Shown here one piece after another: positions 9,270 through 32,000 of a stretch of DNA of 32,000 nucleotides (position 1 is the stretch's first letter; each line of letters starts with the position of its first letter). Under the pieces are notes generated by a model. It made no database searches. It saw nothing but the letters and a program-made list of their open reading frames with translations, and had not been told where the DNA came from. The stretch spans positions 2,490,001-2,522,000 of the forward strand of contig NC_010296.1 in NCBI RefSeq assembly GCF_000010625.1, in the 5' to 3' direction. The stretch is from Microcystis aeruginosa NIES-843 (GTDB taxonomy: Bacteria; Cyanobacteriota; Cyanobacteriia; Cyanobacteriales; Microcystaceae). The translations under genes and the position numbers were made by a program.

Positions 9270-9324
9270 TAAAGAATTTAACGTGAAGACGGGGATGGGT
9301 CTCAGCTTATCTACAACTGCTGTC

Positions 9325-14452: not shown

Positions 14453-14716
14453 ATGATGACAACTGTTCAATCTCCTTGTACCGTTGAAGACATTCAAAAC
14501 TGGCTCGTTGATCAGTTTGCTCAACAACTCGATGTTGACCTTGATGACATTGATATTGAAGAACCTTTTGATAATTATGAACTCGACTCACGAAAAGCGT
14601 TAGTTTTATTAGGACGCTTAGAAAAATGGCTCGGAAAGGAATTAAATCCTGTGGTCATTTTTAACTATCCCACCATTGCTGAATTAGCAACCCGATTAGG
14701 GGAATTATATCTTTAA
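14453..14716 (+). CDS. Free-standing acyl/peptidyl carrier protein, 87 aa
   Basis: The phosphopantetheine-site motif is YELDSRKAL (Ser46, 14588-14590), followed by FNYPTIAELATRL, which is typical of PKS-type ACP helix III. It is the first gene of the co-directional cluster. Confidence 0.85.
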   Translation: MMTTVQSPCTVEDIQNWLVDQFAQQLDVDLDDIDIEEPFDNYELDSRKALVLLGRLEKWLGKELNPVVIFNYPTIAELATRLGELYL

Positions 14717-14778
14717 CTTTTTCTTGTATTCTTTCTTATTCACTCTATTCCTCATCACATTTTAGGAGAATTTCACCA

Positions 14779-16575
14779 ATGGTTACGACTGACACAAAAG
14801 TTTATGATGTTGTGATTATGGGAGCAGGTTTCGCCGGGGTCTGTCAAGCAAGACACTTACTTCTAAATGTTCCCAACATTAAAATTGCACTGATCGATCC
14901 TCGTCCAGAAGAAAGAACTAATAAAGACCTCAAAATTGGCGAATCAATGGTGGAAATTGCCACCCTATTTGTTTGCAAAGAATTGGGGTTATACGAATAT
15001 ATGATCGAAAATCATCCTCCCAAATTTGGACTAAACTTCCATTGGCCGAAAAAGAAGGACAAAACGACTACCACTGATGATTATTATCATATTTGGAATA
15101 ATCGTCAACCGCCTTTGGCTTCCTTTCAAATGAACCGGGCAAAATTTGAACGGGATCTCCTAAAAATGAATAAAGCGATGGGAGCAACTTTTTATCAAGG
15201 TCGAGTTGTAGATGTTGATTTAACCTCAAAAGATGAACTCAAAACCGTTATCGCTAAAGTCGAAAATGAACAGATAACTCTCAAAGCAAAGCACGTTATT
15301 GATGCCGCAGGACGGAAGTTTATTATTGGTCAAAAAACCGATAATCTCCTATTTGGAGCAGATAATCTTTTTGGACTTGATACCGGTTCTGTTTGGGTTA
15401 GAGTTAACAATATTGATCGCACCATTTTTCACGATGGTTATGATCCTTATGGTACAACTTGTAGCCATTACTATGCAACCAATCATTGGTTCGGTCATGG
15501 TCATTGGTTATGGATGATTCCTACCGAGAAGGATAGTCAAGAAATTTCCATTGGCATTGCTTATCATCGTTCAGCGATCGCTGATAAGCAAATTAATACA
15601 AAAGAGAAATTCTATGCTTTCTTAAAAGCCAATCATGAAATTCTTTATCGTTTAGTTAATAGTGGTGAAAATATTGATTTCCATTATTTACCGCGACCTT
15701 CTCATACAAGCAAAACCATGTTTTCAGCCGATAATTGGTATGTAATTGGAGATGCAGCTTGTATTTTTGATCCTTTTTATTCTTTGGGATCTAGCATGAT
15801 TTCCTATCAAATTGAATGTACGACAGAAATTATTCGCAGTAAATTAGTAGGAGAAGCTATTGGCGAGAAAAAACAAGCGGCGTACAATGATTTTATCCTA
15901 ACTTACACGCGGTTTAATAACCATCTAATCAAACATCATGATCAACAGTTAGGAGATGCCAGTATTATGAGTTGGCGGATCTATCATGATTATATCTGGT
16001 GGTTTGGTGTCCAAGTTCCGATGTACACGGGAAAATGGTTTTTAGATTTAGATTTTCTCACCCGATATACTCCTGGTTTAAAAGAACATCAAATGGGGTA
16101 TTGTGAACATCTTTATCAGCAATTTAACGAAGTCATCGCTCAGGGCAAAAATTTAGGGTTTATGGATTGTCATCGAGGAGATCAACTTTGGGGTGATTAT
16201 CATACCTTAAAACATTTTGATGATTTTGTTGAAAATGCCAAACTTGAACCCAGACGGTGTAATGTTTTTGCTTGTATGAAAACCACTAATTTTTATACAG
16301 CCATTTGGTATGCTAATTTTCTCTGGAAAGGGTTTGGAGTCACTGCTTTTGTTAAACCGAAGAATCTTTTCTACTTACTGAAGCACTTACAAGGGGTAAT
16401 ACAAGCGGACATCGCAGAAAGAGTTTATAAACATTTCACCAAAGGAATTCCCTCCAATCGCAAAATTGCGGAAATGCGTCAAGAGTTTACCACCTATCAC
16501 TATCAGCCAGAACTTAATTCGTGGGAACAAGAAACAGCACCTTTAGCTTCTCAAAAAATTACAGTTACTGTTTAA
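14779..16575 (+). CDS. Flavin-dependent halogenase, paralog 1, 598 aa
   Basis: It has GxGxxG (VVIMGAGFAG, 14821-14838), Lys in DLKIGES (K52), WxWxIP (GHWLWMIP, 15505-15522) and FxxPxxSxG (IFDPFYSLG, 15766-15789). An RBS aggag lies 8-12 nt upstream. Confidence 0.85.
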   Translation: MVTTDTKVYDVVIMGAGFAGVCQARHLLLNVPNIKIALIDPRPEERTNKDLKIGESMVEIATLFVCKELGLYEYMIENHPPKFGLNFHWPKKKDKTTTTDDYYHIWNNRQPPLASFQMNRAKFERDLLKMNKAMGATFYQGRVVDVDLTSKDELKTVIAKVENEQITLKAKHVIDAAGRKFIIGQKTDNLLFGADNLFGLDTGSVWVRVNNIDRTIFHDGYDPYGTTCSHYYATNHWFGHGHWLWMIPTEKDSQEISIGIAYHRSAIADKQINTKEKFYAFLKANHEILYRLVNSGENIDFHYLPRPSHTSKTMFSADNWYVIGDAACIFDPFYSLGSSMISYQIECTTEIIRSKLVGEAIGEKKQAAYNDFILTYTRFNNHLIKHHDQQLGDASIMSWRIYHDYIWWFGVQVPMYTGKWFLDLDFLTRYTPGLKEHQMGYCEHLYQQFNEVIAQGKNLGFMDCHRGDQLWGDYHTLKHFDDFVENAKLEPRRCNVFACMKTTNFYTAIWYANFLWKGFGVTAFVKPKNLFYLLKHLQGVIQADIAERVYKHFTKGIPSNRKIAEMRQEFTTYHYQPELNSWEQETAPLASQKITVTV

Positions 16576-16642
16576 TCGTTTGGAAATTCATCGAGTCTTT
16601 GCTAAATTACTTATTTCATTTCGTATCAGGAGAATTTGAACA

Positions 16643-18442: not shown

Positions 18443-18555
18443 ATTTGGGTTAATCACTTAGGCATAGGTAAAAGATAACATCAAAAATCACAAGATAGCA
18501 TCTTTTACCTTTAACCCTACGCAATTACTGTCTATTAATTACGGATATCTCAACT

Positions 18556-21500
18556 ATGAAACCTATTGCAATTATTGGAATTGGCTGTCGTTTTCCTAAA
18601 GCGAATAATTATCATGAATTCTGGCAATTATTATCAAAGGGAATTGACGGCATCACCGAAATTCCTAAGGAGCGCTGGAATATTGATGAATATTATGATG
18701 AGAATCCCGAAACACAGGGGAAAATGAATTCTCGTCATGGGGGATTTTTATCGCAAGTTGATGGGTTTGATCCTAATTTTTTCGGGATTTCTCCTAGAGA
18801 AGCCTTATTAATGGACCCTCAGCAACGCTTACTCTTAGAAGTAGCTTGGGAAACCATTGAAGATGCAGGAATAACACGGGAACAATTGGCAGGATCGAAA
18901 ACAGGTGTATTTGTGGGAATTGCCACAAACGATTATAGTCGCATTCATGCAGGATATAGCCACCATCCCCAAGGCTATGATTTAACAGGAAACTGCACAA
19001 ATATCGCAGCCGGTCGTCTTTCCTATCTTTTTAACTTAAAAGGTCCTAGTTTAGCGGTAGATACGGCTTGTTCTTCCTCTTTGGTCGCAGTGCATCTCGC
19101 TTGTCAAAGTTTATGGAATGATGAGTCTTCAATGGCGATCGCAGCAGGGGTTAACCTGATTTTATCCCCTATTGGTCATATTGCGTTAAGCAAATTGAAA
19201 GCCTTGTCTCCTGATGGACGTTGCAAAACCTTTGATGAAAGCGCCAATGGATATGTGCGAAGTGAGGGAGTCGGTTGTATTATTCTCAAACCGTTGGCTC
19301 AAGCGATCGCAGATAAGGATTCCATTTATGCGTTAATTAGAGGAACTGCTATTAATCATGATGGACGCAGCAAGGGGTTAACGGTTCCCTATGGACCGGC
19401 ACAAGAAAGCTTGATTCGATCAGCCTTGAAAAATGCCGAAATTGAGCCAAAAGAGCTTAATTATGTGGAATTACACGGGACGGGAACATCTTTAGGCGAT
19501 CCCATCGAAGCGATGGCCTTGGGAGCTGTGTTAGAAGAAGGACGAGACAAGGATAATCCTTGTTTGGTGGGATCGGTAAAAAGTAATATAGGACATCTCG
19601 AAGCAGCGGCAGGAATTGCCAGTGTGATTAAGATGGCACTTTCCCTGAAAAACAAGCAAATTCCGCCCAGTCTGCATTTTAACAAGCCGAATCCTTATAT
19701 TCCCTTTGATAAGTTACCCCTTAAGCTTCAATCATCTTTAATTACCTGGCCACAACAGGAAACAACCGCCAAGGGGGGAATTAGTTCTTTTGGATTTTCG
19801 GGAACAAACGCTCATCTTATCTTAGAAGAAGCTAATTTATCTCACCCAGAACCAATTTCCTTAACTTTCCCTCATTTACTCCCTTTATCTGCCCATAGTC
19901 AAGAAGCGGTTAGAGATTTAGCTCAAAATTATGAAGATTTCCTGAAAGATCAAGCTTTAACCGCTGAATTTGTCCAGAATCTTTGCTATAGTGCTAGTGC
20001 AAGACGGACTCATCATGCTCATCGTCAGGCGGTTGTGGTTCATTCTCATGAGGAATTATTGAAGGGTTTAAAAGAGTTAGAAACGATTGATTTATCGACT
20101 CAATCTAAGCCTTCAAAACGTAAAACAAACATTGCTTTTGTCTTTTCTGGCCAAGGACCTCAATGGTGGGCAATGGGACGGGAATTATTAGCAACAGAAC
20201 CGGTTTTTCGCTCTGTTATTAAACAATGTGATACTTTGATTCAAAAGTATGCTAACTGGTCATTATTAGCGGAATTTAATGCGTCTGAAGCTCAATCTCG
20301 TTTACAAGAAACAGAAGTTTCTCAACCTGCTTTATTCGCTTTACAAGTTGGATTAGCTAAATTATGGCAATCTTGGGGGATTAATCCTAAATCTGTGGTT
20401 GGTCACAGCTTGGGAGAAGTTGCAGCCGCCCATTTTGCGGGAATTCTAACTCTTGAGGAAGCCATTCATTTGATTTGTCAGCGCGGACAGTTGATGCAGC
20501 AAGCAACAGGAAATGGAAAAATGCTTGCGATTGAATTACCTGTTAATGAGGTAGAAAATTTAATGGCTGCTTGGGAAAATAAATTAGAAATTGCTGCCAT
20601 TAATAGTCCCTATTCAACGGTTGTATCTGGGGAGTCTCAATCGATCGATCAATTAATTGCTGAATTGTCCCAAAACCGTCCCGATATTTTTTCCAAAGAA
20701 CTACCTGTTAATTATGCTTTTCATAGTCAACAAATGACTACTTTTGCGGATAATTTAGTTAAAAAATTAGGAGAGCTTCAGCCTCAAAAAAGCACCATAC
20801 CAATTTTCTCAACCGTAACAGGTGATCAACAAGAGGGGACATTATTTAATGCCGCTTATTGGGGACAAAATATGCGTCAGACGGTACGTTTTAACCCTGC
20901 TATTGAAGCAATGATTAAATCTCGTCATACTATCTTTGTTGAAATCAGCCCCCATCCTGTTTTATTGGGATATATTAAAAGTACCTTACGAGAACAAGAT
21001 ACTGAGGGATTTGTTTTACCCTCTCTAAGACGAGAACATTCTGAACGGGGAACGCTATTAAATTCTTTAGGAAAGCTCTACACTTGGGGACATTCGATTA
21101 ATTGGGAAAAATTATATCCCGAAAATTGTCAGTTTGTTAAGTTACCGCTTTATCCTTGGCAACATGAATCTTATTGGGTAAGTGATGCTAAACCTCAATT
21201 TAAGTCTGTTTCGTCTGCTTCTAGTTTACTTAATTTATTAGTTGAAGGCAAAACTGAACAACTAACGGAACAGTTAAATCAAAGTGATCAATTATCACCT
21301 GAAGTCAAGCAGTTTTTACCGCAATTATTACAGTTATTGGTGGGAGAAGATACAACAATAGCAGGCCAGATGCCTATCCTACAGGATGTGAGTAAAAACT
21401 GTTACAAAGTGGAATGGCAACTCAGTCCTTTAAACTTAAAAAATAAGCCTTCTCAAGGAGAACGGTGGTTAATTTTTAATGATAATCAAGTAGTCGGTAA

Positions 21501-23289
21501 AGCCTTAGCAACAACCCTAAATGATGCTTATGTTTTGGTGTCTTCTGGTCAAACTTATCAGAAGTTGGTGTCAGGTCATTATCAAATTAATCCTAATAAT
21601 GTTAAGGATTTTCAACGGTTGTTACAAGATCTAACTGAACCAATCACCAAAGTGGTCTATTTATGGGGGTTAGACAGCGATATTAACTCCCAACCCTCTC
21701 AAACTCGTTCTTATGCCAGTTTATTGTATCTAACACAAGCTTTAGCTCAATTTAAAACTAAAGAACCCCCTAAACTTTGGGTCATAACACAACAAGCACA
21801 ACCGGTGAATGATGCTGTTAAACCGCTTAAAATAGCGCAAACGTCCTTATGGGGAATGGGTCAAGTCATTGCCCTTGAATATCCTAATTTATGGGGAGGA
21901 TTGATTGATTTAGAAGAAAAACAACCATCGTCTCAAGCAATTATTGCTGAAATAACAGAAAATCTAGGAGAAGATCGCATCGCTTTTCGGGATCATCAAC
22001 GATATGTTGCCCGTTTAGTACCTAATAAAGCAATAAAAAGCTCAAACATCAATTTTAAGAAGACAGAAGCCAGTTATCTCATTACTGGTGGCTTAGGCTC
22101 TTTAGGATTAAGTTTAGCAGATTGGTTAATTGAAAAAGGTGCCAATCATTTAATCTTAACCAGTCGGCGAGCCTTAGCTGACCATTCAACGGATAAACAG
22201 GTAAAAATCAAAGCTTTAGAGGATAAAGGGGCTACTATTCAAGTAATTGCCGCTGATGTCAGTGATCATCAACAAACCCGTCAACTTTTTCACCAAATTC
22301 AAGAAAATTGTCCTCCCTTACAGGGTATTATTCACGCAGCAGGGGTTTTGAGCGATCGCACCATTGACAAGATGGATTTCCATTGTTTTGAGAGCGTATT
22401 TAATCCTAAAGCAGCAGGAGCGTGGAATTTACACCAACTTTCTCAAGATTTATCCTTAGATTTCTTTGTTTGTTTCTCTTCCATGTCTGCTTTAATCGGA
22501 TCACGAGGTCAAATTCACTATGCTGCTGCCAACCATTTCTTAGATGGTTTAATGCACTACCGTCGGGAGTCTGGACTCACAGGGTTAAGCATTAACTGGG
22601 GACCTTGGGCTCAAGGGGGAATGGCCACGCAAGGCTATGAAGAAGGCTTAAAACGCCTGGGAATCAATCCATTACAACCTAATTTAGCCCTAGATACTTT
22701 AGATGCTCTAATCAATGGTAATGTTACTCAAACAATGGTAGCAGAGATTGATTGGTCTAAGTTTAAAACGATTGTTGCAGCAAAAGGACGGGTGGCTTTC
22801 TTAGAAGCGTTATTCAAGCAAGATAAGGATAATTTTGTGCAAACGGTCGAGAATTTCCCCCAAACCATCCAAAAAAACCCTCCTCACCGACGAGTCACCC
22901 TATTAACCACTCGTTTACAGCAAGAAGTAGCGCAAGTCTTAGGAATTCACGGAGATACTTTACCAGATACTGATCAAGGGTTCTTTGAGATGGGAATGGA
23001 TTCTTTAATGTCCGTAGAACTGAAACATCGTCTAGAAGGCTTATTTTCTGTCTCTTTACCTTCTACCTTTGCTTTTGAGTATCCCACTATTGGTGATGTG
23101 GTGCAGTATTTTGTCCAAGAAGTATTTGCTTGGCAAGATAATTCAGAAAATTCTCAGATTTCTTCGGAAACCGAGTCAACGGATGTTGTAGTACTCAACC
23201 AAGCCCTTGCTGAATTGGAGTCACTTTCAGAAGCAGAAACAGAAGCTTTGATGGAACAGGAATTGGCGGAATTAGAAGCATTACTTTAA
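18556..23289 (+). CDS. Type I modular PKS, KS-AT-KR-ACP, 1577 aa, no loading module
   Basis: KS: DTACSSS (Cys172, 19069-19071), HGTGT, NIGHLEAAAG. AT: GHSLGE (Ser618, 20407-20409), YAFHS. KR: TGGLGSLG (22084-22107), HYAAAN, VLSD. ACP: GMDS (Ser1483, 23002-23004). The acidic helical C-terminal tail ELESLSEAETEALMEQELAELEALL looks like a docking domain. No DH HxxxGxxxxP motif was seen. Confidence 0.9.
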   Translation: MKPIAIIGIGCRFPKANNYHEFWQLLSKGIDGITEIPKERWNIDEYYDENPETQGKMNSRHGGFLSQVDGFDPNFFGISPREALLMDPQQRLLLEVAWETIEDAGITREQLAGSKTGVFVGIATNDYSRIHAGYSHHPQGYDLTGNCTNIAAGRLSYLFNLKGPSLAVDTACSSSLVAVHLACQSLWNDESSMAIAAGVNLILSPIGHIALSKLKALSPDGRCKTFDESANGYVRSEGVGCIILKPLAQAIADKDSIYALIRGTAINHDGRSKGLTVPYGPAQESLIRSALKNAEIEPKELNYVELHGTGTSLGDPIEAMALGAVLEEGRDKDNPCLVGSVKSNIGHLEAAAGIASVIKMALSLKNKQIPPSLHFNKPNPYIPFDKLPLKLQSSLITWPQQETTAKGGISSFGFSGTNAHLILEEANLSHPEPISLTFPHLLPLSAHSQEAVRDLAQNYEDFLKDQALTAEFVQNLCYSASARRTHHAHRQAVVVHSHEELLKGLKELETIDLSTQSKPSKRKTNIAFVFSGQGPQWWAMGRELLATEPVFRSVIKQCDTLIQKYANWSLLAEFNASEAQSRLQETEVSQPALFALQVGLAKLWQSWGINPKSVVGHSLGEVAAAHFAGILTLEEAIHLICQRGQLMQQATGNGKMLAIELPVNEVENLMAAWENKLEIAAINSPYSTVVSGESQSIDQLIAELSQNRPDIFSKELPVNYAFHSQQMTTFADNLVKKLGELQPQKSTIPIFSTVTGDQQEGTLFNAAYWGQNMRQTVRFNPAIEAMIKSRHTIFVEISPHPVLLGYIKSTLREQDTEGFVLPSLRREHSERGTLLNSLGKLYTWGHSINWEKLYPENCQFVKLPLYPWQHESYWVSDAKPQFKSVSSASSLLNLLVEGKTEQLTEQLNQSDQLSPEVKQFLPQLLQLLVGEDTTIAGQMPILQDVSKNCYKVEWQLSPLNLKNKPSQGERWLIFNDNQVVGKALATTLNDAYVLVSSGQTYQKLVSGHYQINPNNVKDFQRLLQDLTEPITKVVYLWGLDSDINSQPSQTRSYASLLYLTQALAQFKTKEPPKLWVITQQAQPVNDAVKPLKIAQTSLWGMGQVIALEYPNLWGGLIDLEEKQPSSQAIIAEITENLGEDRIAFRDHQRYVARLVPNKAIKSSNINFKKTEASYLITGGLGSLGLSLADWLIEKGANHLILTSRRALADHSTDKQVKIKALEDKGATIQVIAADVSDHQQTRQLFHQIQENCPPLQGIIHAAGVLSDRTIDKMDFHCFESVFNPKAAGAWNLHQLSQDLSLDFFVCFSSMSALIGSRGQIHYAAANHFLDGLMHYRRESGLTGLSINWGPWAQGGMATQGYEEGLKRLGINPLQPNLALDTLDALINGNVTQTMVAEIDWSKFKTIVAAKGRVAFLEALFKQDKDNFVQTVENFPQTIQKNPPHRRVTLLTTRLQQEVAQVLGIHGDTLPDTDQGFFEMGMDSLMSVELKHRLEGLFSVSLPSTFAFEYPTIGDVVQYFVQEVFAWQDNSENSQISSETESTDVVVLNQALAELESLSEAETEALMEQELAELEALL

Positions 23290-23353
23290 CAGTTATCAGT
23301 TATCTGAATACCTAACAACCTCACACCTAATATCTAAGGAGCATTTTAACATC

Positions 23354-26300
23354 ATGGGTTCTCATCACCAGAAAACAGAATTAACGCCGTTACAAAAAGC
23401 AGTTATTGCGCTTAAAGAAGCTCGTAACAAGATTGAAGCCTTAGAACGGCAAAAAAATGAACCGATCGCTATTATTGGCATGGGGTGTCGTTTTCCGGGG
23501 GGTGCAAATAGTCCAGAGGCGTTTTGGGAGCTATTATCAAGGGGAAAAGAAGCAATTGTCCCTGTTCCTAGCCAAAGATGGGATGCGGAGGCTTATTATG
23601 ACGAAAATCCCGATCTTCCTAACAAAACTTATGCTCGTTATGGCGGGTTTCTTGACGCAGTAGATCAATTTGATCCGCAATTTTTCGGGATGACTCCCCG
23701 GGAGGCGATCGCACTAGACCCTCAACAACGATTATTATTAGAGGTAAGTTGGGAAGCGTTAGAAAATGCCGGAATTGCACCTCAGAAGCTGACAGGGACG
23801 CAAACAGGCGTATTTGTGGGCATTGGCTTGGATGATTACGCAAAACGGCAAATTAAGCAACAAATTCCCATTGATGCTTATACGGGATCAGGAAATGCGT
23901 TTTGTTTCGCTTCAGGTCGCTTATCCTATTTTTTAGGGCTACAAGGACCCAGTTTAGCCATTGATACCGCCTGTTCTACCTCTTTAGTCACGGTACATCT
24001 GGCTTGTCAAAGCTTACGCAACAGAGAGTCAAATTTAGCTTTAGCAGGGGGAGTTAGTTTAATGCTATCCCCGGAGGTGACGTTATATCTTTCTAAAACC
24101 CGCGCTTTGTCCCCTGATGGTCGTTGTAAAACCTTTGATAAAGATGCAAATGGCTATGTGAGAGGGGAAGGCTGTGGAATGGTGGTCTTAAAACGCTTTT
24201 CTGATGCTATAAGCGATGGAGATAACATTTTAGGGGTAATTAGAGGCTCGGCGGTCAATCAAGATGGCCCCAGTAGTGGTTTAACGGTTCCCAATGGATC
24301 AGCGCAAATGGCAGTTATTCGTCAAGCATTGGAGAATGCAAAAGTAAAACCCGAACAAATTAGCTATTTAGAAGCACACGGGACAGGAACAGCCTTAGGC
24401 GACCCTATTGAAGTACGGGGGATTAACAATATCCTATGCAAAGATCGTTCCACTGATAACCCCTTAATGGTAGGTTCAGTAAAAACGAATATCGGCCACC
24501 TAGAAATTGCAGCAGGGATGGCCAGCCTATTAAAAGTCATTTTATCCCTAAAAAATCAAGAAATCCCCCCCCATCTTCATTTTAAAGAACTTAATCCTGA
24601 TTTAGCGGCTGCTGCAACCGCTCTCAAAATTCCTACCGCTTCTCTGCCTTGGCAGCGAACAGAAGAACCTAGAAGGGCTGGAATTAGTGCATTTGGATTA
24701 AGTGGCACAAATGCCCACATTATCATCGAAGAACCGCCTCAATTAAGCTTTAATCCTTCTGAAGTGGATCGTCCTGCTCATTTACTCACTCTATCAGCGA
24801 AAAGCGACGATGCTTTAGATGATTTAGCGCAAAAATGGGTCAACTATTTAGAGAAAAATCCTCAATTAAACCTAGCAGACTTAGCTTTTAGTGCCAACAC
24901 GGGACGAGGACAATTTAACCATCGTCTGGCAATTTTGGCAAAATCAACCCTTGAAGCCAAGGACTCTTTAACAGCATTTACGCAAAAACAACCTTGTTTG
25001 AATGTTTTAAGCCAAGCAGTTGCAAAAAGTCGTCAAAATAAGATTGCTTTCTTGTTTACAGGACAAGGTTCTCAGTATGCAGACATGGGACGACAACTGT
25101 ATGAAACTCAACCCACCTTTCGTCACGCCTTAGAGGAATGCGATCGCTTATTGCAACCTTACCTAGAAAAGTCCTTATTAGAGGTTTTATACAGTGATTC
25201 TAGCTTATTAGACCAAACTGCTTATACTCAACCCGCCTTATTCGCCATTGAATACGCATTATATAAATTATGGCAGTCTTGGGGCATTAAACCTGATGGG
25301 GTTTTAGGTCATAGTGTGGGGGAATATGTGTCCGCTTGTGTTGCAGGGGTTTATTCTCTCGAAGAGGGAATCAAGTTAATTGCCGAAAGAGGACGCTTAA
25401 TGCAGTCTTTACCCCAAAAAGGCGCAATGGCAGCCATATTTGCCCCTATTGAAACAGTAAAATCTGTTATTTCTCCTTATGGGGATCAAGTTGAGATTGC
25501 AACTATCAATAGTTCGGAAAATATTGTTATTTCGGGTGATCAGGAAGCAATTAATCAGATTAAAGCAGATTTAGAATCACAAAGCATTGAAGTGCGTCTG
25601 CTTAAGGTATCTCATGCTTTTCATTCCGGGATGATGCAACCGATATTAGCAGAATTTAAAGTGATCGCTGCTAAAATTAGCTATAAAACACCCCAATTAG
25701 ATTGGATTTCCACCGTAACAGGTGAAGAAATCAGCCAAGCAGTAACAGAGGACTATTGGTGTCAACAAGTGCGTCAATGCGTCCAATTTGCCCCAGCAAT
25801 AGAAACCTTAGCCAGCCAAGGTTATAATCTATTTATTGAAATCGGCTCTCATCCGATTTTAACGAGATTGGGTCAAAAAACCTTAGCAAACCCTGATTAT
25901 CTGTGGTTATCTTCCCTACAACGAGGACAGGATGATTGGCAAATTTTATTACAAAGTGTGGCGAAATTAGCCGTTTCTGGGGTTAATATTGATTGGAATG
26001 GCTTTGATAAAGATTATGCTCGTCTTCGTCTTCCTTTACCTACTTATGCTTTCCAAAAACAACCCTACTGGTTAACCGTAGAGGCGCCTGGTTTACGCCC
26101 AACCCAAGGGACAGAAACCGTAGAAGGGCAAGACTTACACCAAAGTCAAGAACGAGAAACTCTAGTGGCGCCAGGCTTGCGCCCAACCCAAAAACAAAAC
26201 GAAACCAAGGCTGAAAGCTTAGAAAGTCAATTAATTGCCTTAATAAGTCAAATTACGGGTTTAAATCCTCAGCAATTGAGTTTGAATGTTTCCTTAGAAG

Positions 26301-28177
26301 CAGATTTAGGGTTAGATTCTATTATGATGACCCAATTAATGAACGGGTTACTATCATTAATTCCTGAAGAGCAACGTAGTCAATTTAGTGAAACCTTTTC
26401 CCTACGCCATTTAATGCAAGTCTCCAATCTTCAGGAATTATTAACCATTATTCAATCTCATACTTCATCCCCCAAACCTCAAATCTCTAACCCTAAACCA
26501 CAAACCAAAAACCTCAAACCACAACCCTCGAATCTGGTTCCTATTCTCCATAGTCAAATTCCCTTGTTAATGAGTTATTGGAGTCTCAATTCTAATAGTT
26601 TATTTACTAAGGTTAAAATTGCAGGAGAATTTGACTTAAATATTGCTCAACAAGCATGGAAACTGTTAATTAATCGACATCCCATGTTACGGGCGCAATT
26701 TCAGATTCCAGAAGATGCAACCTGCTTTGCAGACTATCAATTAGAAGTGCTAGAAAATCCCATTCCTCCTGAAATTCTTGTTAAAGATTTCACCACTTTA
26801 ACTCCTGAGGAACAAGGGGAGAAAATTGAAGAAGAAATCTATCATTGGTTAAACTATAACTGGTCCTTAACGCAATGGCCGTTGCATGGATTTTCTGTTC
26901 TTAAATTATCTGATCAAATTCATCAATTATTTTTAGGGAATGAACACTTAATTTCGGATGGGTTAAGTAACCATGTCATGATGCGGGAATTCTTGGAAAT
27001 TTACCGGGCTATAGTTGCTAAAGAAACGCCAAATCTTCCCCCTACATTGACTGTAGAAGATTATCGAAAACAGGTTCAATTAATGAACGATTGGCAAGAT
27101 ATTGAGGAAGATCGAGCCTTAGCAGAATACAATAATGCTGTGTCTGGAATGTCCTATCGTTGGCAACCTAAACAGCAGAAAAATGCTCAAAAATCTCCTC
27201 TCTTTTACAATCAAAAGTATCTACTTTCAGCAGAAACTACCTCTCAATTAATCGACAAAACCCGTCAATGGCGAGTCCCGATGAATGCACTATTATTAGG
27301 TGCATTTATAAAAACTATGTCACAAATAGATTCAAAAGCTGAAAATATCGGAATTTCGATTCCCACCAGTGGACGAATTTACCCCGAAGTAGATGCAACA
27401 GGTGTGGTTAGTAGTTTTGCTCAAAATCTTGCATTAAGTTTTGCTAAACCTCAATCTGAGCAAGATTGGCCGACCTTTTTAAGCCAAATTCAGCAAACTG
27501 TACAACAACATATTGGCACCGGTTTAGATCGGGCGCAAACTCGTCAAATGGGAACAATTTTTCGAGACAATATTACCCTAGAAAAGGGTAAAATTCCCCC
27601 TCATAGTCTTTCTTTAATACAGGAGGCTTTAAAGTCTAATTTATACCTTCCTTATACGGGACAAACTCACCTGCAACCTCAGTATGATGCTTTATCAATT
27701 ACTGACTATCAAGCAGGAGGAATGAACGCAACTGGAACAATTGATATTTTGCAAGAAATATTTAATAATCGTCTTCATTTATTTGCAAGTTACGATTACC
27801 ATCACTTTGACTTATTGCTAATAGATCAATTAATGACAGCCTATGTCAGCCAAATTGAAGAACTAGCCAATTTACCCGTCCAAGATCAAGTTATTATTTC
27901 TCATTCTTCCTCTATTTCTCTTAATACAGAGATTGAAGAAATGCTACGACAAATAACTTCCGAAATTTGTCATTGGACAATTGAAGAAGACGAAATAAGT
28001 GATGATTTGGAGGCAGATTTAGGACTAGATTCTTTAGAACGCATTCGCCTTGTTACCAAGCTAGAAGGGATTTATGGCAAACAATATCGCCAAGACCTTT
28101 TAAATTGTCGTACCTTGCAAGAAATGGCTGCTATTTTAGCCCCATCTCAACCTTCAATCGTCAACAGCTATTCGTAA
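23354..28177 (+). CDS. Hybrid PKS/NRPS, KS-AT-ACP-C-T, 1607 aa, with no A domain between C and T
   Basis: The N-terminal coiled coil LTPLQKAVIALKEARNKIEALERQ looks like a docking domain. KS: DTACSTS (Cys207, 23972-23974), HGTGT, NIGHLEIAAG. AT: GHSVGE (Ser654, 25313-25315), HAFHS. ACP: LGLDS (Ser989, 26318-26320). The condensation-like domain has EHLISDG (His1198, 26945-26947). The terminal carrier has LGLDS (Ser1560, 28031-28033). Confidence 0.85.
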   Translation: MGSHHQKTELTPLQKAVIALKEARNKIEALERQKNEPIAIIGMGCRFPGGANSPEAFWELLSRGKEAIVPVPSQRWDAEAYYDENPDLPNKTYARYGGFLDAVDQFDPQFFGMTPREAIALDPQQRLLLEVSWEALENAGIAPQKLTGTQTGVFVGIGLDDYAKRQIKQQIPIDAYTGSGNAFCFASGRLSYFLGLQGPSLAIDTACSTSLVTVHLACQSLRNRESNLALAGGVSLMLSPEVTLYLSKTRALSPDGRCKTFDKDANGYVRGEGCGMVVLKRFSDAISDGDNILGVIRGSAVNQDGPSSGLTVPNGSAQMAVIRQALENAKVKPEQISYLEAHGTGTALGDPIEVRGINNILCKDRSTDNPLMVGSVKTNIGHLEIAAGMASLLKVILSLKNQEIPPHLHFKELNPDLAAAATALKIPTASLPWQRTEEPRRAGISAFGLSGTNAHIIIEEPPQLSFNPSEVDRPAHLLTLSAKSDDALDDLAQKWVNYLEKNPQLNLADLAFSANTGRGQFNHRLAILAKSTLEAKDSLTAFTQKQPCLNVLSQAVAKSRQNKIAFLFTGQGSQYADMGRQLYETQPTFRHALEECDRLLQPYLEKSLLEVLYSDSSLLDQTAYTQPALFAIEYALYKLWQSWGIKPDGVLGHSVGEYVSACVAGVYSLEEGIKLIAERGRLMQSLPQKGAMAAIFAPIETVKSVISPYGDQVEIATINSSENIVISGDQEAINQIKADLESQSIEVRLLKVSHAFHSGMMQPILAEFKVIAAKISYKTPQLDWISTVTGEEISQAVTEDYWCQQVRQCVQFAPAIETLASQGYNLFIEIGSHPILTRLGQKTLANPDYLWLSSLQRGQDDWQILLQSVAKLAVSGVNIDWNGFDKDYARLRLPLPTYAFQKQPYWLTVEAPGLRPTQGTETVEGQDLHQSQERETLVAPGLRPTQKQNETKAESLESQLIALISQITGLNPQQLSLNVSLEADLGLDSIMMTQLMNGLLSLIPEEQRSQFSETFSLRHLMQVSNLQELLTIIQSHTSSPKPQISNPKPQTKNLKPQPSNLVPILHSQIPLLMSYWSLNSNSLFTKVKIAGEFDLNIAQQAWKLLINRHPMLRAQFQIPEDATCFADYQLEVLENPIPPEILVKDFTTLTPEEQGEKIEEEIYHWLNYNWSLTQWPLHGFSVLKLSDQIHQLFLGNEHLISDGLSNHVMMREFLEIYRAIVAKETPNLPPTLTVEDYRKQVQLMNDWQDIEEDRALAEYNNAVSGMSYRWQPKQQKNAQKSPLFYNQKYLLSAETTSQLIDKTRQWRVPMNALLLGAFIKTMSQIDSKAENIGISIPTSGRIYPEVDATGVVSSFAQNLALSFAKPQSEQDWPTFLSQIQQTVQQHIGTGLDRAQTRQMGTIFRDNITLEKGKIPPHSLSLIQEALKSNLYLPYTGQTHLQPQYDALSITDYQAGGMNATGTIDILQEIFNNRLHLFASYDYHHFDLLLIDQLMTAYVSQIEELANLPVQDQVIISHSSSISLNTEIEEMLRQITSEICHWTIEEDEISDDLEADLGLDSLERIRLVTKLEGIYGKQYRQDLLNCRTLQEMAAILAPSQPSIVNSYS
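26075..26200 (+). repeat. Three in-frame 42-bp (14-aa) tandem repeats in the AT-ACP linker of the hybrid PKS
   Basis: The units are TVEAPGLRPTQGTE / TVEGQDLHQSQERE / TLVAPGLRPTQKQN. Units 1 and 3 share the GC-rich cores ggcgcctggtttacgccc (26083-26100) and ggcgccaggcttgcgccc (26167-26184). Confidence 0.85.
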
Positions 28178-28179
28178 AA

Positions 28180-28286
28180 TATAGCCCGACAAATTAATGT
28201 TAGGACGAAGAAAAATATGTCATTCCTGCGGTAGGTAGGAATCCACAAATATTTATGATATCCTGAACTTTTTTTGTCCGGCTATA
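28180..28286. repeat. 107-bp segment bounded by 14-bp inverted repeats, immediately after the hybrid PKS stop codon
   Basis: TATAGCCCGACAAA (28180-28193) pairs with TTTGTCCGGCTATA (28273-28286; rc TATAGCCGGACAAA, 13/14). An internal hairpin is attcct-gcggtaggt-aggaat. I see no TSD. Confidence 0.5.
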
Positions 28287-28343
28287 CCTCAATCAGCGAA
28301 GGTTCGTTATCAGTCCTTAATGGCTACCTTTTAAAAGACCAAT

Positions 28344-28362
28344 GGGCGCAAGCCTTGCGCCC
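28344..28362. repeat. Perfect GC-rich palindrome GGGCGCAAG-C-CTTGCGCCC
   Basis: Read directly, 34 nt upstream of the A-C gene start. It resembles the core of the 42-bp coding repeats at 26083-26100 and 26167-26184. Confidence 0.7.
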
Positions 28363-28395
28363 CTACCACCTAACATCTAATAGAGGATTATTCTT

Positions 28396-31329
28396 ATGGC
28401 TTTTTCCCCCGAAATTCCCTACTATAAAATTATTAAACAAGCACAATTAACCCCTGATGCGATCGCTGTTTTAGATGAGACTTGTCCCCTAACTTATCAA
28501 CAATTAGACCATCTTTCTAATCAAGTTGCTGCTTATTTACAGACTCAAGGTGTTAACCCCAATACCAGAGTAGGAATTATGACGGAACGAAATCCAGGCA
28601 TGATTATTGGTATTTTGGGAATTCTTAAAGCAGGTGGCTGTTATGTACCCTTAGATCCCGATTATCCCGTCGAAAGATTGCGTTATATTCTTGATCATGC
28701 CACTATCGAGATTTTACTTACCGAACATCAAGTAAGTGAACAGTTAATTTCCTGTGTGACAGAACCTTTACCCTTGCAAACCGTCCTCTTTTTAGATGAA
28801 GGAGAAAGATTAAACAAAATTAATGATTTAACTCAGATTACCACTTCTATCTGGCAAAAACACAGTAAAGAATCCATAAATCTTTGTAATCGTCCTGAGG
28901 ATTTAATGGTAATTCTTTATACGTCTGGATCAACAGGACGGCCAAAAGGGGTAATGTTAAACCATCGCGGTTATATGAATCGTCTAGAATGGATGCAAAA
29001 GACATTTTCCCTGAAAACAGGCGATCGCGTTGCACAACGCACCTCTTTTTGCTTCGATATTTCCGTATGGGAAATTTTCTGGACGTTAATGGAAGGTGCA
29101 ACAATATGTCCCGTCAAACGCGAAGTAGTCTTAAATCCTTGGGAATTTGCTGCATGGATTAAAAAGACTAAAATTAATGTAATGCACTTTGTTCCCTCCC
29201 TCTTTGGGGAATTTATCAGTGCGATTGAAAACGAATCTTGGACATTTCCTGATCTACGCTGGTTAATCTTTAGTGGGGAAGCCTTACCCATGTCTTTTAT
29301 CCAAAAATGGCTTGATTGTTATGGATTAAAGACAGGTTTAGCCAATCTTTATGGACCGACAGAAGCCTCAATTGATGTGACTTACCATATTATTACAGAA
29401 CGTCCTGACGAACGCACCAGCAGCCAAATTCCCATCGGAAAAGCGATCGATAATGTCTATCTCAAAGTGTTGGATGATCAGATGCAACCGGTTAAACAAG
29501 GGGAAATGGGAGAACTTTGGCTTGGTGGCGTACAATTAGCATTAGGATACCTCAAAGATCCTGAAAAAACCGCTAAAGCGTTCTGTTCTAATCCTTTTTC
29601 TGATGTCTCTGGTGACTATATTTATCGGACAGGTGATCTAGTCAAGGAATTACCCGATGGTACGCTGGAATATCATGGACGTATCGATAATATGGTCAAA
29701 ATTCGGGGTTTTCGCATTGAATTAGGGGAAATTGAGAGCATCTTAACCACTCATCCCAATGTCCGCGAGGCCGCCGTTTTAGCTATTGATTACGGTGAAG
29801 GACAAAAACGATTAATTGCTTGTTTATCGGGGGATAAAATCAAAAACCGAGTTCTCAAAGCACATTTAGAGCAGAAACTCCCCCATTACATGATTCCTCA
29901 ACGATTCGCTTGGTTTCCACAACTTGCTAAGAATCATAACGGAAAGTTAGACCGTAAAGCATTAGCCGCCGAATTACTTCCTGCTCCCGCTGCTCCCGCT
30001 GCTCCCCCTACTCCTTCTCTTATACCCCTTGGACCGGCACAAAGTTGGTTAGTCAACTATTTTGAACCTCCCTATCAATGGTTGGGTTATACTCGTTTTC
30101 TCTATCATCAGTCTTTGAATCTTGATATTTTCAATCAAGCCGCTAATCTTTTGGTGCAACGTCATGAAGCTTTTCGGACGGTTTGCCTACAAAATCAAGG
30201 TAAATGGCAGCAATACTTGATCAATGATCCTCAACCTATCCTAGCAGAGTATTGGGATGGAAGCCACTTAACAGAAGCAGAACGTAATGCTAAAATCAAA
30301 GCTCAAATGTCAGATTTAGCTAAAACAATCCAGATTGACCGTTGGCCACTCACTGCCACTCTTGTTGTTAAAGTTAGTCCCTATTGCTACGATATTACGA
30401 TGGTCGCTCACCACATCATTGCCGATATGTTAAGTGCAACCATCTTGTTTAAGGAACTTTGGAGTGCCTATCATCAATTATTGGTAGGAAGTGATCCGAC
30501 TTTTCCTAACCCTAATCCTCAGTCTTACTTAGATTTTGTGCAAGTCTTGAGGGATGAGGAGAAAAAAGGAACAATGAACGAACACTTGAATTATTGGAAG
30601 GAACAATTTCCCGATGCAGAGAGTCGCTTTGAAGTCCCCGTCGATCATGTCAAAGGCCCAAATATTGAAGCTTCTGCCGAAAGTGCGCGATTTGTCCTAA
30701 GTAAAGCGCAAACTAAACAGTTATTAAGCCAAGGCAAGGCTTATTATCAGTCTAACTTTTATCCTATTCTCCTTGCTCCTTTATACCGTTTATTAGGTGA
30801 TTGGAGTCAACGCAAACAGGTGGTTATCAGTCATCGTAGTCATGGGCGAGATTTAGGCGAAGGTCAGTCTTTTATGGAAAGTATGGGCAATTATGCTGTA
30901 AATTTTCCCATAGGCATTAATTTATCCACTTCTACGACTTGGCAAAAAACTATCAGTACCATCAATGAGCAGTTTGAAAGCTTACCAATGAATGGCGTAA
31001 CTTATGATTGGATAGGTGAGTCTTTACCTGAATATCTCTATCCTGATAGTAATTTAACCCCAGTAAGGGCTAATTATCTGGGAAATCGTTCGGTTCCTCT
31101 CTCTGACTTGTTTGAGTTTGTTTATGGCGAGCGCGATTGTCGTTTATCGCCACTGGATCAAAAACGTACCACATTGATTGAATTCTTTTTCCTAATCATA
31201 GATGGTCAGTTAGAGATAAGAATTGAATATTCTCGTAATTTCCATCTTCCTACGACCATTCAAAAAATCGGACAAGATTATCTCATTCTTCTTGAGGAAT
31301 TAGAGCCTATTGGCGTTGCTGATTCGTAA
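28396..31329 (+). CDS. NRPS-like protein, adenylation domain fused to a condensation-like domain, with no carrier domain, 977 aa
   Basis: A-domain core motifs run in order: LTYQQLD, LKAGGCYVPLD, YTSGSTGRPKG (28918-28950), FDISVWE, NLYGPTE, GELWLGG, YRTGD, GRIDNMVKIRGFRIELGEIE, LPHYMIP, NGKLDRKAL. A Pro/Ala linker PAPAAPAAPPTPS (about 29976-30020) follows directly, then a C/E-like domain (PLGPAQSWL...; HHIIADMLS, His672-His673, 30409-30414). No GxDS / LGxDS carrier motif occurs anywhere in the protein. Confidence 0.85.
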   Translation: MAFSPEIPYYKIIKQAQLTPDAIAVLDETCPLTYQQLDHLSNQVAAYLQTQGVNPNTRVGIMTERNPGMIIGILGILKAGGCYVPLDPDYPVERLRYILDHATIEILLTEHQVSEQLISCVTEPLPLQTVLFLDEGERLNKINDLTQITTSIWQKHSKESINLCNRPEDLMVILYTSGSTGRPKGVMLNHRGYMNRLEWMQKTFSLKTGDRVAQRTSFCFDISVWEIFWTLMEGATICPVKREVVLNPWEFAAWIKKTKINVMHFVPSLFGEFISAIENESWTFPDLRWLIFSGEALPMSFIQKWLDCYGLKTGLANLYGPTEASIDVTYHIITERPDERTSSQIPIGKAIDNVYLKVLDDQMQPVKQGEMGELWLGGVQLALGYLKDPEKTAKAFCSNPFSDVSGDYIYRTGDLVKELPDGTLEYHGRIDNMVKIRGFRIELGEIESILTTHPNVREAAVLAIDYGEGQKRLIACLSGDKIKNRVLKAHLEQKLPHYMIPQRFAWFPQLAKNHNGKLDRKALAAELLPAPAAPAAPPTPSLIPLGPAQSWLVNYFEPPYQWLGYTRFLYHQSLNLDIFNQAANLLVQRHEAFRTVCLQNQGKWQQYLINDPQPILAEYWDGSHLTEAERNAKIKAQMSDLAKTIQIDRWPLTATLVVKVSPYCYDITMVAHHIIADMLSATILFKELWSAYHQLLVGSDPTFPNPNPQSYLDFVQVLRDEEKKGTMNEHLNYWKEQFPDAESRFEVPVDHVKGPNIEASAESARFVLSKAQTKQLLSQGKAYYQSNFYPILLAPLYRLLGDWSQRKQVVISHRSHGRDLGEGQSFMESMGNYAVNFPIGINLSTSTTWQKTISTINEQFESLPMNGVTYDWIGESLPEYLYPDSNLTPVRANYLGNRSVPLSDLFEFVYGERDCRLSPLDQKRTTLIEFFFLIIDGQLEIRIEYSRNFHLPTTIQKIGQDYLILLEELEPIGVADS

Positions 31330-31539
31330 CCGTTCAGGGGGGGGTGTCAAGCAGCCCGTGGCATTGACTCATATTAAATCCGTTTGATTAAGTCAGGAGA
31401 ATATTTTGGCAAAAGTACTACCTCGAAAATGTCTTGACTATCGTACTCCGAATGAGGTATTCCCCAAAGGTAGATCAGACAGGGATGCAATTCAGGCTTG
31501 AATTGGCGTTACCAAGAGCGTGATGGACTACTCTAGTTA

Positions 31540-31744
31540 GGGGTTGCTAAAAAAGTTTTTCCTGGGGGGGGGTGTGGGGTGTAGGGTGCAGGGTTTTACC
31601 CATTTTCAGGGGGTCAATTACCTCATTTTCAGGGAAAAAGTCCCTAAATTTCCCCCCCGATCACTCCAATGGCCGGTACTTTTTGATTTCAAAAAAGCCT
31701 AAAAATATTATCCAACAAGGTTTTTAGATTTATTCAGCAAGCCC
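31540..31744 (-). mobile_element. MITE family A, divergent copy 3 (205 bp), TSD TAGTTA, inverted relative to copies 1 and 2
   Basis: The termini are GGGGTTGCTAAAAAAGTTTTTCCTGGGGG (compare rc of copy 1, GGGTCTGCTGAAAAAGTTTTTCCTGGGGG) and TTATTCAGCAAGCCC. TAGTTA lies at 31534-31539 and 31745-31750. The interior is diverged and carries ggggtgt ggggtgt agggtgc where copies 1 and 2 carry the GACTCCT array. Confidence 0.7.
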
Positions 31745-31939
31745 TAGTTACCAGATTTTTTCTCCCCCCGAACGCTTACTAAAAATCATCCATTTGTGAG
31801 AGTAGATCATCCATTGTATAAACGTGGAACTCTGCCTAAACTGAAGCTAAAGGGAATCAAACAATTCTTTGTTCATTCTTTAAGAACTATTCGTTGTCTC
31901 TACAGACTGCTATATTATTGATTGGAGAACACACCTACA

Positions 31940-32000
31940 ATGTCTGCTCAATCCTCAACCTCTAGCCTAACTGCTTTACAAAAAACACCGATCGCTATTA
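31940..32000 (+). CDS. Start of a further PKS-type protein (KS N-terminus); truncated by the right edge of the window
   Basis: Manual translation gives MSAQSSTSSLTALQKTPIAI, open to the window end. LT.LQK...PIAI mirrors the N-terminus of the preceding hybrid PKS (LTPLQK...EPIAIIGMGCRFPG). An RBS-like ggag lies 13 nt upstream. Confidence 0.5.
   Translation, partial: MSAQSSTSSLTALQKTPIAI

Follow-up and report, generated by a model that had tools for sequence, protein, structure and literature searches.

Blooms of Microcystis are a global water-quality problem in which attention has mostly been given to microcystins. We analysed here a stretch of 32,000 nt of the Microcystis aeruginosa NIES-843 genome (contig NC_010296.1, positions 2,490,001 to 2,522,000 of the forward strand), hereafter the window. 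It carries the front two-thirds of the orphan cluster called MIC1, cluster 4, type G or clade II, in which genes for polyketide synthases (PKS) and for nonribosomal peptide synthetases (NRPS) are associated with two halogenases and, past the right edge of the window, with a lipid synthase resembling those of polyunsaturated fatty acids (PUFA). This cluster is widespread in Microcystis, its free carrier protein being found on hundreds of contigs, and no product has been linked to it in the nearly twenty years since the genome was published.

Gene content and identity of the cluster

Seven co-directional genes occupy the right part of the window (Table 1). Gene limits were taken from the open reading frame (ORF) list and domains were assigned by Pfam profile search. 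The genes encode a free-standing acyl carrier protein (ACP), two flavin-dependent halogenases, PKS1 with ketosynthase (KS), acyltransferase (AT), ketoreductase (KR) and ACP domains, PKS2 in which KS-AT-ACP is followed by condensation (C) and thiolation (T) domains, a protein with a serine adenylation (A) domain, and the beginning of a further KS protein. An earlier note, made from the sequence alone, had described the same genes, and its gaps of 62, 67, 113, 64, 218 and 610 bp are all reproduced in the ORF list. Its domain orders were recovered for the carrier, the halogenases, PKS1 and PKS2; the last domain of the A protein, taken there for an ordinary C domain, is epimerase-like and is called C* below. 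The limits then given to the cluster (14453-32000) were too narrow, since it extends past both ends.

Every ORF of the cluster in the window is full length. PKS1 opens directly at its KS, the first domain of the protein (start MKPIAIIGIGCRFP), as the note had stated. This KS carries the motifs DTACSS, HGTGT and NIGH, and the Cys-His-His triad is intact in all three KS domains (PKS1, PKS2 and the gene starting at 31940). Both AT domains look malonyl-specific when read by the standard motif rules (GHSLG...YAFH in PKS1 and GHSVG...HAFH in PKS2). The C and T domains of PKS2 carry EHLISDG and LGLDSL, respectively, and the protein has no KR, so that a beta-keto group would be kept. In pairwise comparison of the carrier domains the differences were weak and gave no clear assignment. 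No fatty-acyl-AMP ligase (FAAL), CoA ligase, thioesterase (TE) or reductase (R) domain was detected by Pfam scans in the whole 32 kb, which agrees with what had been noted for the cluster.

Table 1. Features of the window and of the genes following it (window positions, unless a locus is named)
Feature	Position	Strand	Basis or remark
RND (AcrB-type) efflux pump	4316-7414	-	Pfam ACR_tran, 1.5e-167
Membrane-fusion protein (HlyD family)	7713-9269	-	HlyD_3 / HlyD_D23
Secreted protein, 324 aa, signal peptide, PEP-CTERM-like tail (PDP variant)	9325-10299	-	no Pfam family
Secreted PEP-CTERM protein, 258 aa	10798-11574	-	TIGR02595, 17.5 bits (cut-off 16); VPEPSS, transmembrane segment, basic C-terminal tail
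Rearrangement junction: multi-copy Microcystis repeat and DDE transposase fragment (11743-12027, minus strand)	11546-12027		Pfam DDE_Tnp_1
PAS-AraC regulator	12589-13548	+	HTH_18, HTH_AraC, PAS
Free-standing Asl1650-type ACP, 87 aa	14453-14716	+	PP-binding, 1e-16
Flavin-dependent halogenase 1, 598 aa, BAG02598.1	14779-16575	+	Trp_halogenase, 2.3e-13
Flavin-dependent halogenase 2, 599 aa, WP_041804082.1	16643-18442	+	Trp_halogenase, 2.4e-13
PKS1: KS-AT-KR-ACP, no loading module, acidic C-terminal docking tail	18556-23289	+	Pfam
PKS2: docking head, KS-AT-ACP (no KR), C-T	23354-28177	+	Pfam
A(Ser)-C* protein, 977 aa	28396-31329	+	AMP-binding, 2.1e-86; Condensation, 4.3e-46
MITE, 204 bp, with 7-bp duplication CTAGTTA at 31533-31539 and 31744-31750 (204 + 7 = 211 bp)	31540-31743		alignment with empty sites
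PfaA-like KS-AT-ACP protein (1273 aa), first 20 codons	31940-32000	+	99.9%-identical contig L001
Downstream gene 1: KS-AT-ACP, 1273/1279 aa, single ACP			
Downstream gene 2: 239 aa, pseudo-KR piece			matches PfaA positions 1756-1977, E 2.2e-33
Downstream gene 3: KR-DH, 588 aa			
Downstream gene 4: PfaB-family AT (291-785) and two FabA dehydratase/isomerase domains, 1667 aa			
Downstream gene 5: PfaD enoyl reductase, 518 aa			
Downstream gene 6: MFS transporter			
Downstream gene 7: flavin amine-oxidase-family protein, 425 aa	L010 17916-19193		Moorena counterpart, L013 8184-9473
Downstream gene 8: PEP-CTERM protein, 250 aa	L010 19394-20146		paralogue of the 258-aa window protein

The locus is not new and has been published as an orphan in at least five papers. 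Halogenase 1 and PKS1 are exact matches to the NIES-843 proteins BAG02598.1 and BAG02602.1. The 'PKS gene cluster of unknown function' listed at 2,508,556-2,513,289 in the genome paper (Kaneko 2007) is PKS1, because adding 2,490,000 to the window coordinates of this gene gives the same interval. In later papers the locus is named type G secondary-lipid synthase (2011), MIC1 (2013; with RND transporters counted within it, Humbert 2013), cluster 4 and clade II (2026). The clade II paper takes NIES-843 as reference strain and describes a split pfaA with an intervening gene, a fused pfaBC without KS/CLF (chain length factor), two modules of PKS type with one of NRPS type, and one to two halogenase genes in Microcystis. 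All of these features, together with pfa-like genes directly flanking the PKS-NRPS genes, were found here. As far as they were read, these papers do not describe the epimerase-like character of the last domain, the permuted order C-T-A-C* or the terminal place of this arrangement, the serine code, the link between Asl1650 and FAAL-fused ACPs, the PEP-CTERM proteins or the inverted export tail; their 'unknown Rossmann protein' corresponds to the PfaA pseudo-KR piece of Table 1.

The cluster is a true orphan, intact and expressed. In a Singapore bloom, transcripts matching the NIES-843 cluster were the most abundant among PKS/NRPS clusters. A strongly transcribed NRPS-T1PKS-hglE-KS cluster (antiSMASH type) with a tryptophan halogenase, reported from Lake Erie, is probably the MIC1 cluster, the likeness being by description only. 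The status of orphan holds because no product is known for the cluster. A survey of June 2026 still terms the clade II PKS-NRPS-PUFA-synthase-like hybrid uncharacterised, and no characterised syntenic cluster was found, in line with the earlier note, which had called the pathway an orphan and could place it in no characterised system. Keyword searches of a recent Microcystis review and of a metabolomics study gave no passage on the chemistry of the MIC1 cluster, and a plasmid database search with the ACP-halogenase region gave no match.

Lipid synthase, free carrier and starter supply

The seventh gene had been read as the start of another KS protein. It is not a further PKS module but the first piece of a split PUFA-synthase-like iterative lipid synthase. 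Contig L001 is 99.9% identical to window positions 18721-32000 (13.3 kb), has the same 610-bp gap with its miniature inverted-repeat transposable element (MITE), and runs 6.8 kb further through the KS-AT-ACP gene, a 239-aa gene and KR-DH (DH, dehydratase) to the start of a further gene. The latter was identified via contig L002 and locus L010 as the PfaB-AT/FabAx2 (pfaBC-like) gene. To compile the downstream genes of Table 1, L001 and L002 were read together with L010-L012, which are Microcystis genome loci; L010 has all of them, PfaD included. The gene set is now defined on both sides of the cluster and spans ~45 kb from window position 4316 to the 250-aa gene. The earlier note had considered that disrupted downstream genes could make the pathway a dead one. 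They are not disrupted, the first ones being intact on the 99.9%-identical contig and the rest in a 95-98% related strain. The A-containing protein was likewise found unchanged on metagenome contigs.

The synthase departs from a canonical PUFA synthase (PfaA-D) by its single ACP in place of tandem ACPs and by the absence of a KS-CLF pair; no KS or CLF match was obtained in a domain search of the 1667-aa protein. Pfa-like iterative lipid synthases working with PKS and NRPS modules are also found in the chitinimine and megapolipeptin (clade III) and in the zeamine and fabclavine (clade I) systems. Those lines differ from the present one in that they end in a TE or a separate condensation enzyme, have canonical KS-CLF pairs, tandem ACPs and several NRPS modules, and lack halogenases and a free loading ACP. 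The heterocyst glycolipid synthase (hgl, type F) is another cyanobacterial Pfa-like system. Its long-chain lipid is exported by dedicated exporters, and it has a KS-CLF-AT protein (HglC), a thioester reductase and a glycosyltransferase, and neither NRPS nor halogenase. Microcystis makes no heterocysts; some databases name the Microcystis orthologues of the free ACP 'hetM', and the link to the ACP part of HglB/HetM is by this naming only.

The free ACP is ~80% identical to Asl1650 of Anabaena PCC 7120 (PDB 2AFD, E 1e-42); among solved structures, the N-terminal loading ACPs of Pks13 come next. It is also 47% identical to an ACP fused behind a FAAL in a homologous cluster of A. cylindrica, where two PKS modules follow; FAAL-ACP-PKS is present in Clostridium pasteurianum as well. 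Because of the Pks13 neighbours and of this homology to a FAAL-fused ACP, we take the free carrier to be a fatty-acyl loading ACP. A literature search on asl1650 returned nothing characterising the family. No FAAL with a loading ACP exists in the window or in L010, unlike in the A. cylindrica and Clostridium relatives. Its place is occupied by the Pfa-like synthase in Microcystis, in Cyanothece and in the heterocystous members of clade II.

These comparisons suggest that the starter is most likely supplied from just beyond the window edge, by the Pfa-like synthase. A direct hand-over from the Pfa-like line to the loader-less N-terminal KS of ChtnA has been proposed for the chitinimine pathway. 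The description of the cluster as lacking both starter loading and release is right in that no FAAL, CoA ligase, TE or R domain is visible in the 32 kb. The apparent want of a starter source was largely an effect of the end of the window, and that of a release step came from taking the last domain for an ordinary C domain.

The serine unit, the halogenases and the proposed pathway

The A protein carries a normal amino-acid A domain. Ten residues read from its conserved motifs give the code DIWHISLIDK, close to DVWHLSLIDK, which we take to be the canonical serine code. This code is identical in 18 of the 19 homologues, from cyanobacteria, Clostridium, Methylococcales and other bacteria; the unit of Gynuella has a different one, DIRQLSQIEK. 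In many genomes C, T, A and C* form a single protein of ~1650 aa with T ahead of A (in homologue P0152, T at 584-644 and A at 676-1177). A(Ser) thus belongs with the C-T end of PKS2, in a unit that is spread over two proteins here (C-T then A-C*) and fused as C-T-A-C* in these homologues, instead of forming a canonical C-A-T module.

The best PDB matches of C* are the epimerization (E) domains of PvdL, TycA and GrsA (72-129 bits), as compared with 30-50 bits for the standard C domains of SrfA-C and TycC. It scored 28 bits against TIGR01720, below the cut-off. Motifs E1, E2, E5, E6 and E7 are recognisable (PAQSWL, HHIIAD of the HHxxxD type and ANYLGN), giving an E-type signature. We nevertheless did not file C* as a canonical E domain, because the Glu of the EGHGRE motif is replaced and the domain stands after A and not after T. 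Literature searches on DIWHISLIDK and on cyanobacterial tetramate, Dieckmann or condensation domains returned nothing characterising the family.

The gene of this unit comes last in the assembly lines of A. cylindrica, Gynuella sunshinyii (L017, CP007142.1, after a 9148-aa megasynthase), Moorena and Scytonema hofmannii, and no TE or R domain is present in those lines. In S. hofmannii it is followed by an MFS (major facilitator superfamily) gene and by small proteins of similar size, with no pfa genes there, and in Clostridium pasteurianum (L019, CP112872.1) it is fused to a short-chain dehydrogenase/reductase (SDR) and adjoins MFS and FAAL-ACP-PKS genes. Since it is the last element in unrelated clusters whose lines are devoid of TE and R domains, although two of them carry a separate thioesterase gene nearby, C-T-A(Ser)-C* is the best candidate for chain termination, and the release function probably lies within the window. 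No TE or R domain was found among the downstream genes of L010, and no AMP-binding protein there or in the window besides the serine A domain.

The PKS module that precedes the unit lacks a KR in all five cis-AT cases (this window, two Scytonema strains, Moorena and A. cylindrica), which suggests that a beta-ketoacyl-seryl thioester is the likely last intermediate. Such a thioester is the classic precursor of a tetramic acid. An E-type base could plausibly trigger a Dieckmann step; alternatively, D-Ser may be formed and the chain released in some other way, the serine may be dehydrated, or the chain may be transferred to an acceptor. By its logic only, the arrangement resembles tetramate PKS-NRPS lines (equisetin-type and polycyclic tetramate macrolactams), where a non-reducing last ketide unit is likewise followed by one terminal amino-acid module; equisetin has serine as its amino acid. 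A flavin oxidoreductase is encoded nearby here and, in Moorena, also a zinc alcohol dehydrogenase. Unlike in tetramate lines, no R*, TE or TrdC-type Dieckmann cyclase was found in the window or among the downstream genes of L010, and the last domain is epimerase-like. We know of no tetramate from Microcystis.

The nearby flavin oxidoreductase (downstream gene 7, after pfaD) matches LkcE, the lankacidin amide oxidase / Mannich cyclase, over its whole length at low identity (E 1.5e-20), LkcE being its only good solved relative. It is conserved in the Microcystis and Moorena clusters and was not seen within 10 kb of the unit in A. cylindrica or S. hofmannii. The resemblance hints at an oxidation of the N-acyl-serine amide.

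Halogenases 1 and 2 are 73% identical to each other. Both score 50 bits against Trp_halogenase (cut-off 21), carry GAGFAG (GxGxxG) and WLWMIP (WxWxIP), as expected of flavin-dependent halogenases, and extend by 150 aa at the C-terminus. The solved structures closest to them are PltA, CmlS, ChlB4 and CndH, and the Lys of HPPK(F/Y) aligns with the PKKFG segment of PltA, the residue numbering not being fixed by this alignment. With these carrier-dependent (variant B) enzymes they share the fold, both motifs, a long C-terminal extension as in CmlS and CndH, and a carrier encoded next door. The match is remote (E 1e-18 to 1e-11), and the cyanobacterial subfamily, of 590-600 aa, stands beside lipid- or polyene-making PKSs. 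The number of halogenases varies from none to two across strains and genera, with one in Cyanothece, Moorena and Scytonema NUACC21 and none in heterocystous relatives. Strain PCC 9807 yielded a halogenase with 74% identity to halogenase 1, and in this strain the accessions of the ACP and of PKS1 are two apart, leaving room for one gene; as judged from PCC 9807, halogenase 2 is apparently the copy kept in one-halogenase strains. In the original NIES-843 annotation, a 193-aa 'unknown protein' (BAG02601.1) clusters with halogenase 2, which suggests that the gene calling of 2007 had broken this gene into pieces.

The same subfamily is found in a second orphan cluster of Microcystis: on contig JAQMSX010000178.1 (L020, 8001-13514), three tandem halogenases (587, 589 and 602 aa, 60-63% identical to those of the window) lie behind an enediyne-type iterative PKS, with an alpha/beta hydrolase and an SDR after them. 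Enediyne-type iterative PKSs are polyene-making enzymes. Because these paralogues adjoin such a PKS, an unsaturated or enolisable aliphatic carbon is favoured over an aromatic ring, which points weakly to that type of carbon as the target; a halogenated product is plausible. Other assignments were considered and dropped. The 60%-identical Microcystis halogenases had been taken for AerJ/McnD, but the one examined (P0069) is a member of the tandem trio beside the enediyne-type PKS. The small ORFs ahead of the halogenases in L020 and L015 are not carriers. A columbamide/jamaicamide-type front end (ACP and halogenases) was discarded for want of a FAAL and because ColD/ColE, reportedly listed in a survey of dimetal-carboxylate (CylC-type) halogenases, are said not to be flavin enzymes; the literature on JamD yielded nothing of use.

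Taken together, we read the cluster as a triple hybrid in which a Pfa-like lipid synthase would make an acyl-polyketide-serine jointly with two PKS modules and a single serine NRPS unit, and we give this reading a probability of roughly 0.55. Gene and domain content, strain identity, conservation and synteny are documented here; the order of hand-off, the site of halogenation and the release chemistry are inferred. The split synthase (from 31940, ~11 kb: KS-AT-ACP, pseudo-KR piece, KR-DH, PfaB-AT with two FabA domains, PfaD) would assemble malonyl units into a long acyl chain that is probably in part unsaturated. This chain would pass through the free Asl1650-type ACP to the loader-less KS of PKS1, a step for which relatives devoid of pfa genes use a FAAL fused to the same type of ACP. 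One or two carrier-type flavin halogenases may provide an optional tailoring step at an activated carbon, either an enol or an alkene. PKS1 would then add a malonate, reduced to the beta-hydroxy stage, and PKS2 a second one with the beta-keto group retained, before the C domain couples the chain to a serine held on the T domain and loaded by the A domain of the next protein. The epimerase-like C* would end the line; our preferred guess is that a 5-hydroxymethyl tetramic acid is released in a Dieckmann-type reaction. The product may be modified by the LkcE-like flavin oxidase and would be exported by MFS and RND/membrane-fusion systems, together with the PEP-CTERM secreted proteins. What we predict is an acyl-polyketide-serine lipid with a long chain, which may be halogenated and is perhaps a tetramate. 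This sharpens the hypothesis: the compound to look for would be a long-chain lipid-polyketide capped by serine, possibly bearing chlorine or bromine and probably either associated with the cells or exported.

Several observations weigh against this pathway. No product is linked to the cluster, and every chemical step is an inference. Concerning the starter, Moorena JHB has ACP-halogenase-PKS genes with neither pfa genes nor a FAAL nearby, so that the starter source is not uniform; no ACP adjoins the halogenase in Scytonema NUACC21; and for moving the Pfa product onto the free ACP no transfer enzyme was identified, the PfaB-type AT being only a candidate. Flavin halogenases acting on aliphatic chains are rare. 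Concerning release, the EGHGRE motif of C* reads SHRSHGRD, SHRxxGR is conserved in 15 homologues and the Glu of E domains is absent, and to our knowledge no Dieckmann activity has been assigned to a C*-like domain. Separate thioesterase genes lie near the unit in Clostridium (235 aa) and in A. cylindrica (a 137-aa ORF downstream), which makes a release in trans possible in both. Finally, Cyanothece sp. BG0011 (L007, PRLH01000142.1) has the AraC, ACP, one halogenase and PKS1 genes only, divergent from the pfa-like genes, with no PKS2 and no serine unit. Release must therefore differ there. This reduced cluster also implies that the front end can work without the NRPS part.

A broader proposal, rather unlikely in our judgement, is that C-T-A(Ser)-C* is an unrecognised chain-termination module conserved across cyanobacteria, clostridia and proteobacteria, in which a beta-ketoacyl-seryl thioester would be released by an epimerase-derived domain, for example through Dieckmann cyclization to 5-hydroxymethyl tetramic acid. 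In that case Microcystis would make a halogenated acyl tetramate with a very long chain, exported by the RND pump and handled outside by the PEP-CTERM proteins. If true, a major bloom former would possess, in this acyl tetramate, an envelope or colony lipid of a new class. C-T-A(Ser)-C* is in any case recognised here as a conserved and phylogenetically broad end unit.

Four other explanations were weighed against the triple hybrid. In the first, two parallel lines would be joined only at the end, as in zeamine or fabclavine: a small, possibly halogenated starter would be processed by ACP-PKS1-PKS2-Ser, and C* would join a separate Pfa chain to it by an ester or amide bond, thereby releasing the product. 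Zeamine, fabclavine and megapolipeptin offer published examples of parallel PKS-NRPS and Pfa-like lines. In Microcystis the pfaA-like gene has immediately upstream of it the sequence encoding C*, a domain that retains the HHxxxD motif. We consider this arrangement unlikely, since C-T-A-C* also terminates clusters free of pfa genes (A. cylindrica, Gynuella, Moorena and Clostridium), no aminotransferase or thioester reductase is present that would make a nucleophile on the lipid, and PKS1 would still be left without a starter source.

The second keeps strict colinearity and places the Pfa-like synthase last, a small ACP-bound starter (malonyl or acetyl, halogenated at its activated carbon) being extended by PKS1, PKS2 and serine before iterative Pfa elongation of the seryl thioester. 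It would follow the Microcystis gene order (ACP, halogenase, PKS1, PKS2, A-C*, pfa). The Moorena ACP-halogenase pair precedes a reducing PKS with no lipid source nearby, malonyl self-priming is usual in Pfa-type and iterative systems, and CmlS, found by the PDB search, is a chloramphenicol-biosynthesis halogenase by its NCBIfam name. In S. hofmannii, however, nothing pfa-like follows A-C*, the position of the pfa genes is variable (divergent in Cyanothece), and the type of ACP that is fused to FAALs indicates long-chain loading. We also know of no precedent for a Pfa KS elongating an N-acyl-seryl thioester, and regard this order as quite improbable.

The third concerns the halogenation substrate. 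An aromatic starter (hydroxybenzoyl or hydroxyphenyl) could be loaded on the free ACP by an enzyme encoded elsewhere, yielding a dihalogenated aryl-polyketide-serine, much as CndH or PltA halogenate a phenol or pyrrole on a carrier. These two, the closest solved relatives, act on pyrrole (PltA) and tyrosine (CndH) held by a carrier protein, and the adjacency of ACP and halogenase is conserved in Microcystis, Cyanothece and Moorena. No aryl-acid ligase, aryl A domain or chorismate-pathway gene lies in or next to the cluster, though, and the ACP is of the fatty-acyl loading type. Furthermore, the nearest Microcystis paralogues adjoin a polyene-making PKS and not an NRPS, and halogenase-free relatives retain the same ACP. 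An aromatic starter is thus very improbable.

That the cluster is a decaying, non-functional relic in NIES-843, as the MITE between the NRPS and pfa genes, the inversion junction with its transposase fragment and the nested insertion sequence (IS) elements at 1352-4204 might suggest, is hardly credible, given the full-length window ORFs, the intact KS triads, the downstream genes intact on a 99.9%-identical contig with the same MITE, a MITE in which no terminator-like site was found, and the abundance of matching transcripts in the bloom.

Export genes, inversion and mobile elements

The four minus-strand genes at 4316-11574 (RND, resistance-nodulation-division, pump to 258-aa secreted protein, Table 1) also belong to the cluster. 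They are 94-96% identical at the DNA level to plus-strand genes located downstream of the cluster in Microcystis sp. T1-4 and LSC13-02. The membrane-fusion protein shares 95.6% identity with its T1-4 counterpart, whose gene lies downstream of the cluster, and 52% with that of the Moorena cluster. The homologues of the 324-aa protein adjoin the C-T-A-C* gene in T1-4 (92%), Moorena (42-43%) and A. cylindrica (40%), and the 258-aa protein is 86-88% identical to T1-4 and S464 proteins and 51% to a Moorena protein. In Moorena producens JHB, the tail reads A-C*, MFS, 250 aa, 324 aa, alcohol dehydrogenase, membrane-fusion protein, RND.

When window positions 4316-12580 were compared with L011 17260-22078 and with L012, the export tail was found upstream and inverted here, and downstream on the same strand in T1-4, LSC13-02 and Moorena. 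Synteny with T1-4 breaks exactly at the junction, the breakpoint (~11.5-12.6 kb) containing the transposase fragment and the multi-copy repeat; positions 11546-11787 match several places in L010/L011. We conclude that the NIES-843 gene order is explained by one inversion of the biosynthetic core relative to the tail.

Secreted proteins that have a signal peptide and a PEP-CTERM tail but belong to no Pfam family, two to three in number, accompany the serine unit in Microcystis and Moorena (L010 19394-20146, L013 15447-17536), and the 324-aa type also accompanies it in A. cylindrica (L016 15408-16379). These proteins might bind or anchor the exported lipid. The PAS-AraC regulator is probably cluster-specific: a 49%-identical AraC gene precedes the ACP at the same position in Cyanothece sp. 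BG0011. Between the regulator and the ACP lies a minus-strand ORF of 172 aa (13649-14167) that looks coiled-coil-like and matches no family. No counterpart was seen in the Cyanothece or Moorena loci, so that it may be no real gene.

The earlier note had assigned 211 bp of the 610-bp gap to a MITE plus its target duplication. This was borne out by the empty sites present in L002 and T1-4, and a copy of the element occurs elsewhere in Microcystis DNA (L010). At the left end of the window (1352-4204, minus strand), a TnpB (IS605 OrfB) gene is interrupted by an intact IS (1657-3027), whose 16-bp terminal inverted repeats are perfect and which encodes a 422-aa DDE_5 transposase. The zinc-finger TNB domain of this TnpB is split between 3014-3403 and 1352-1627, and its N-terminal HTH piece lies at 3911-4204.

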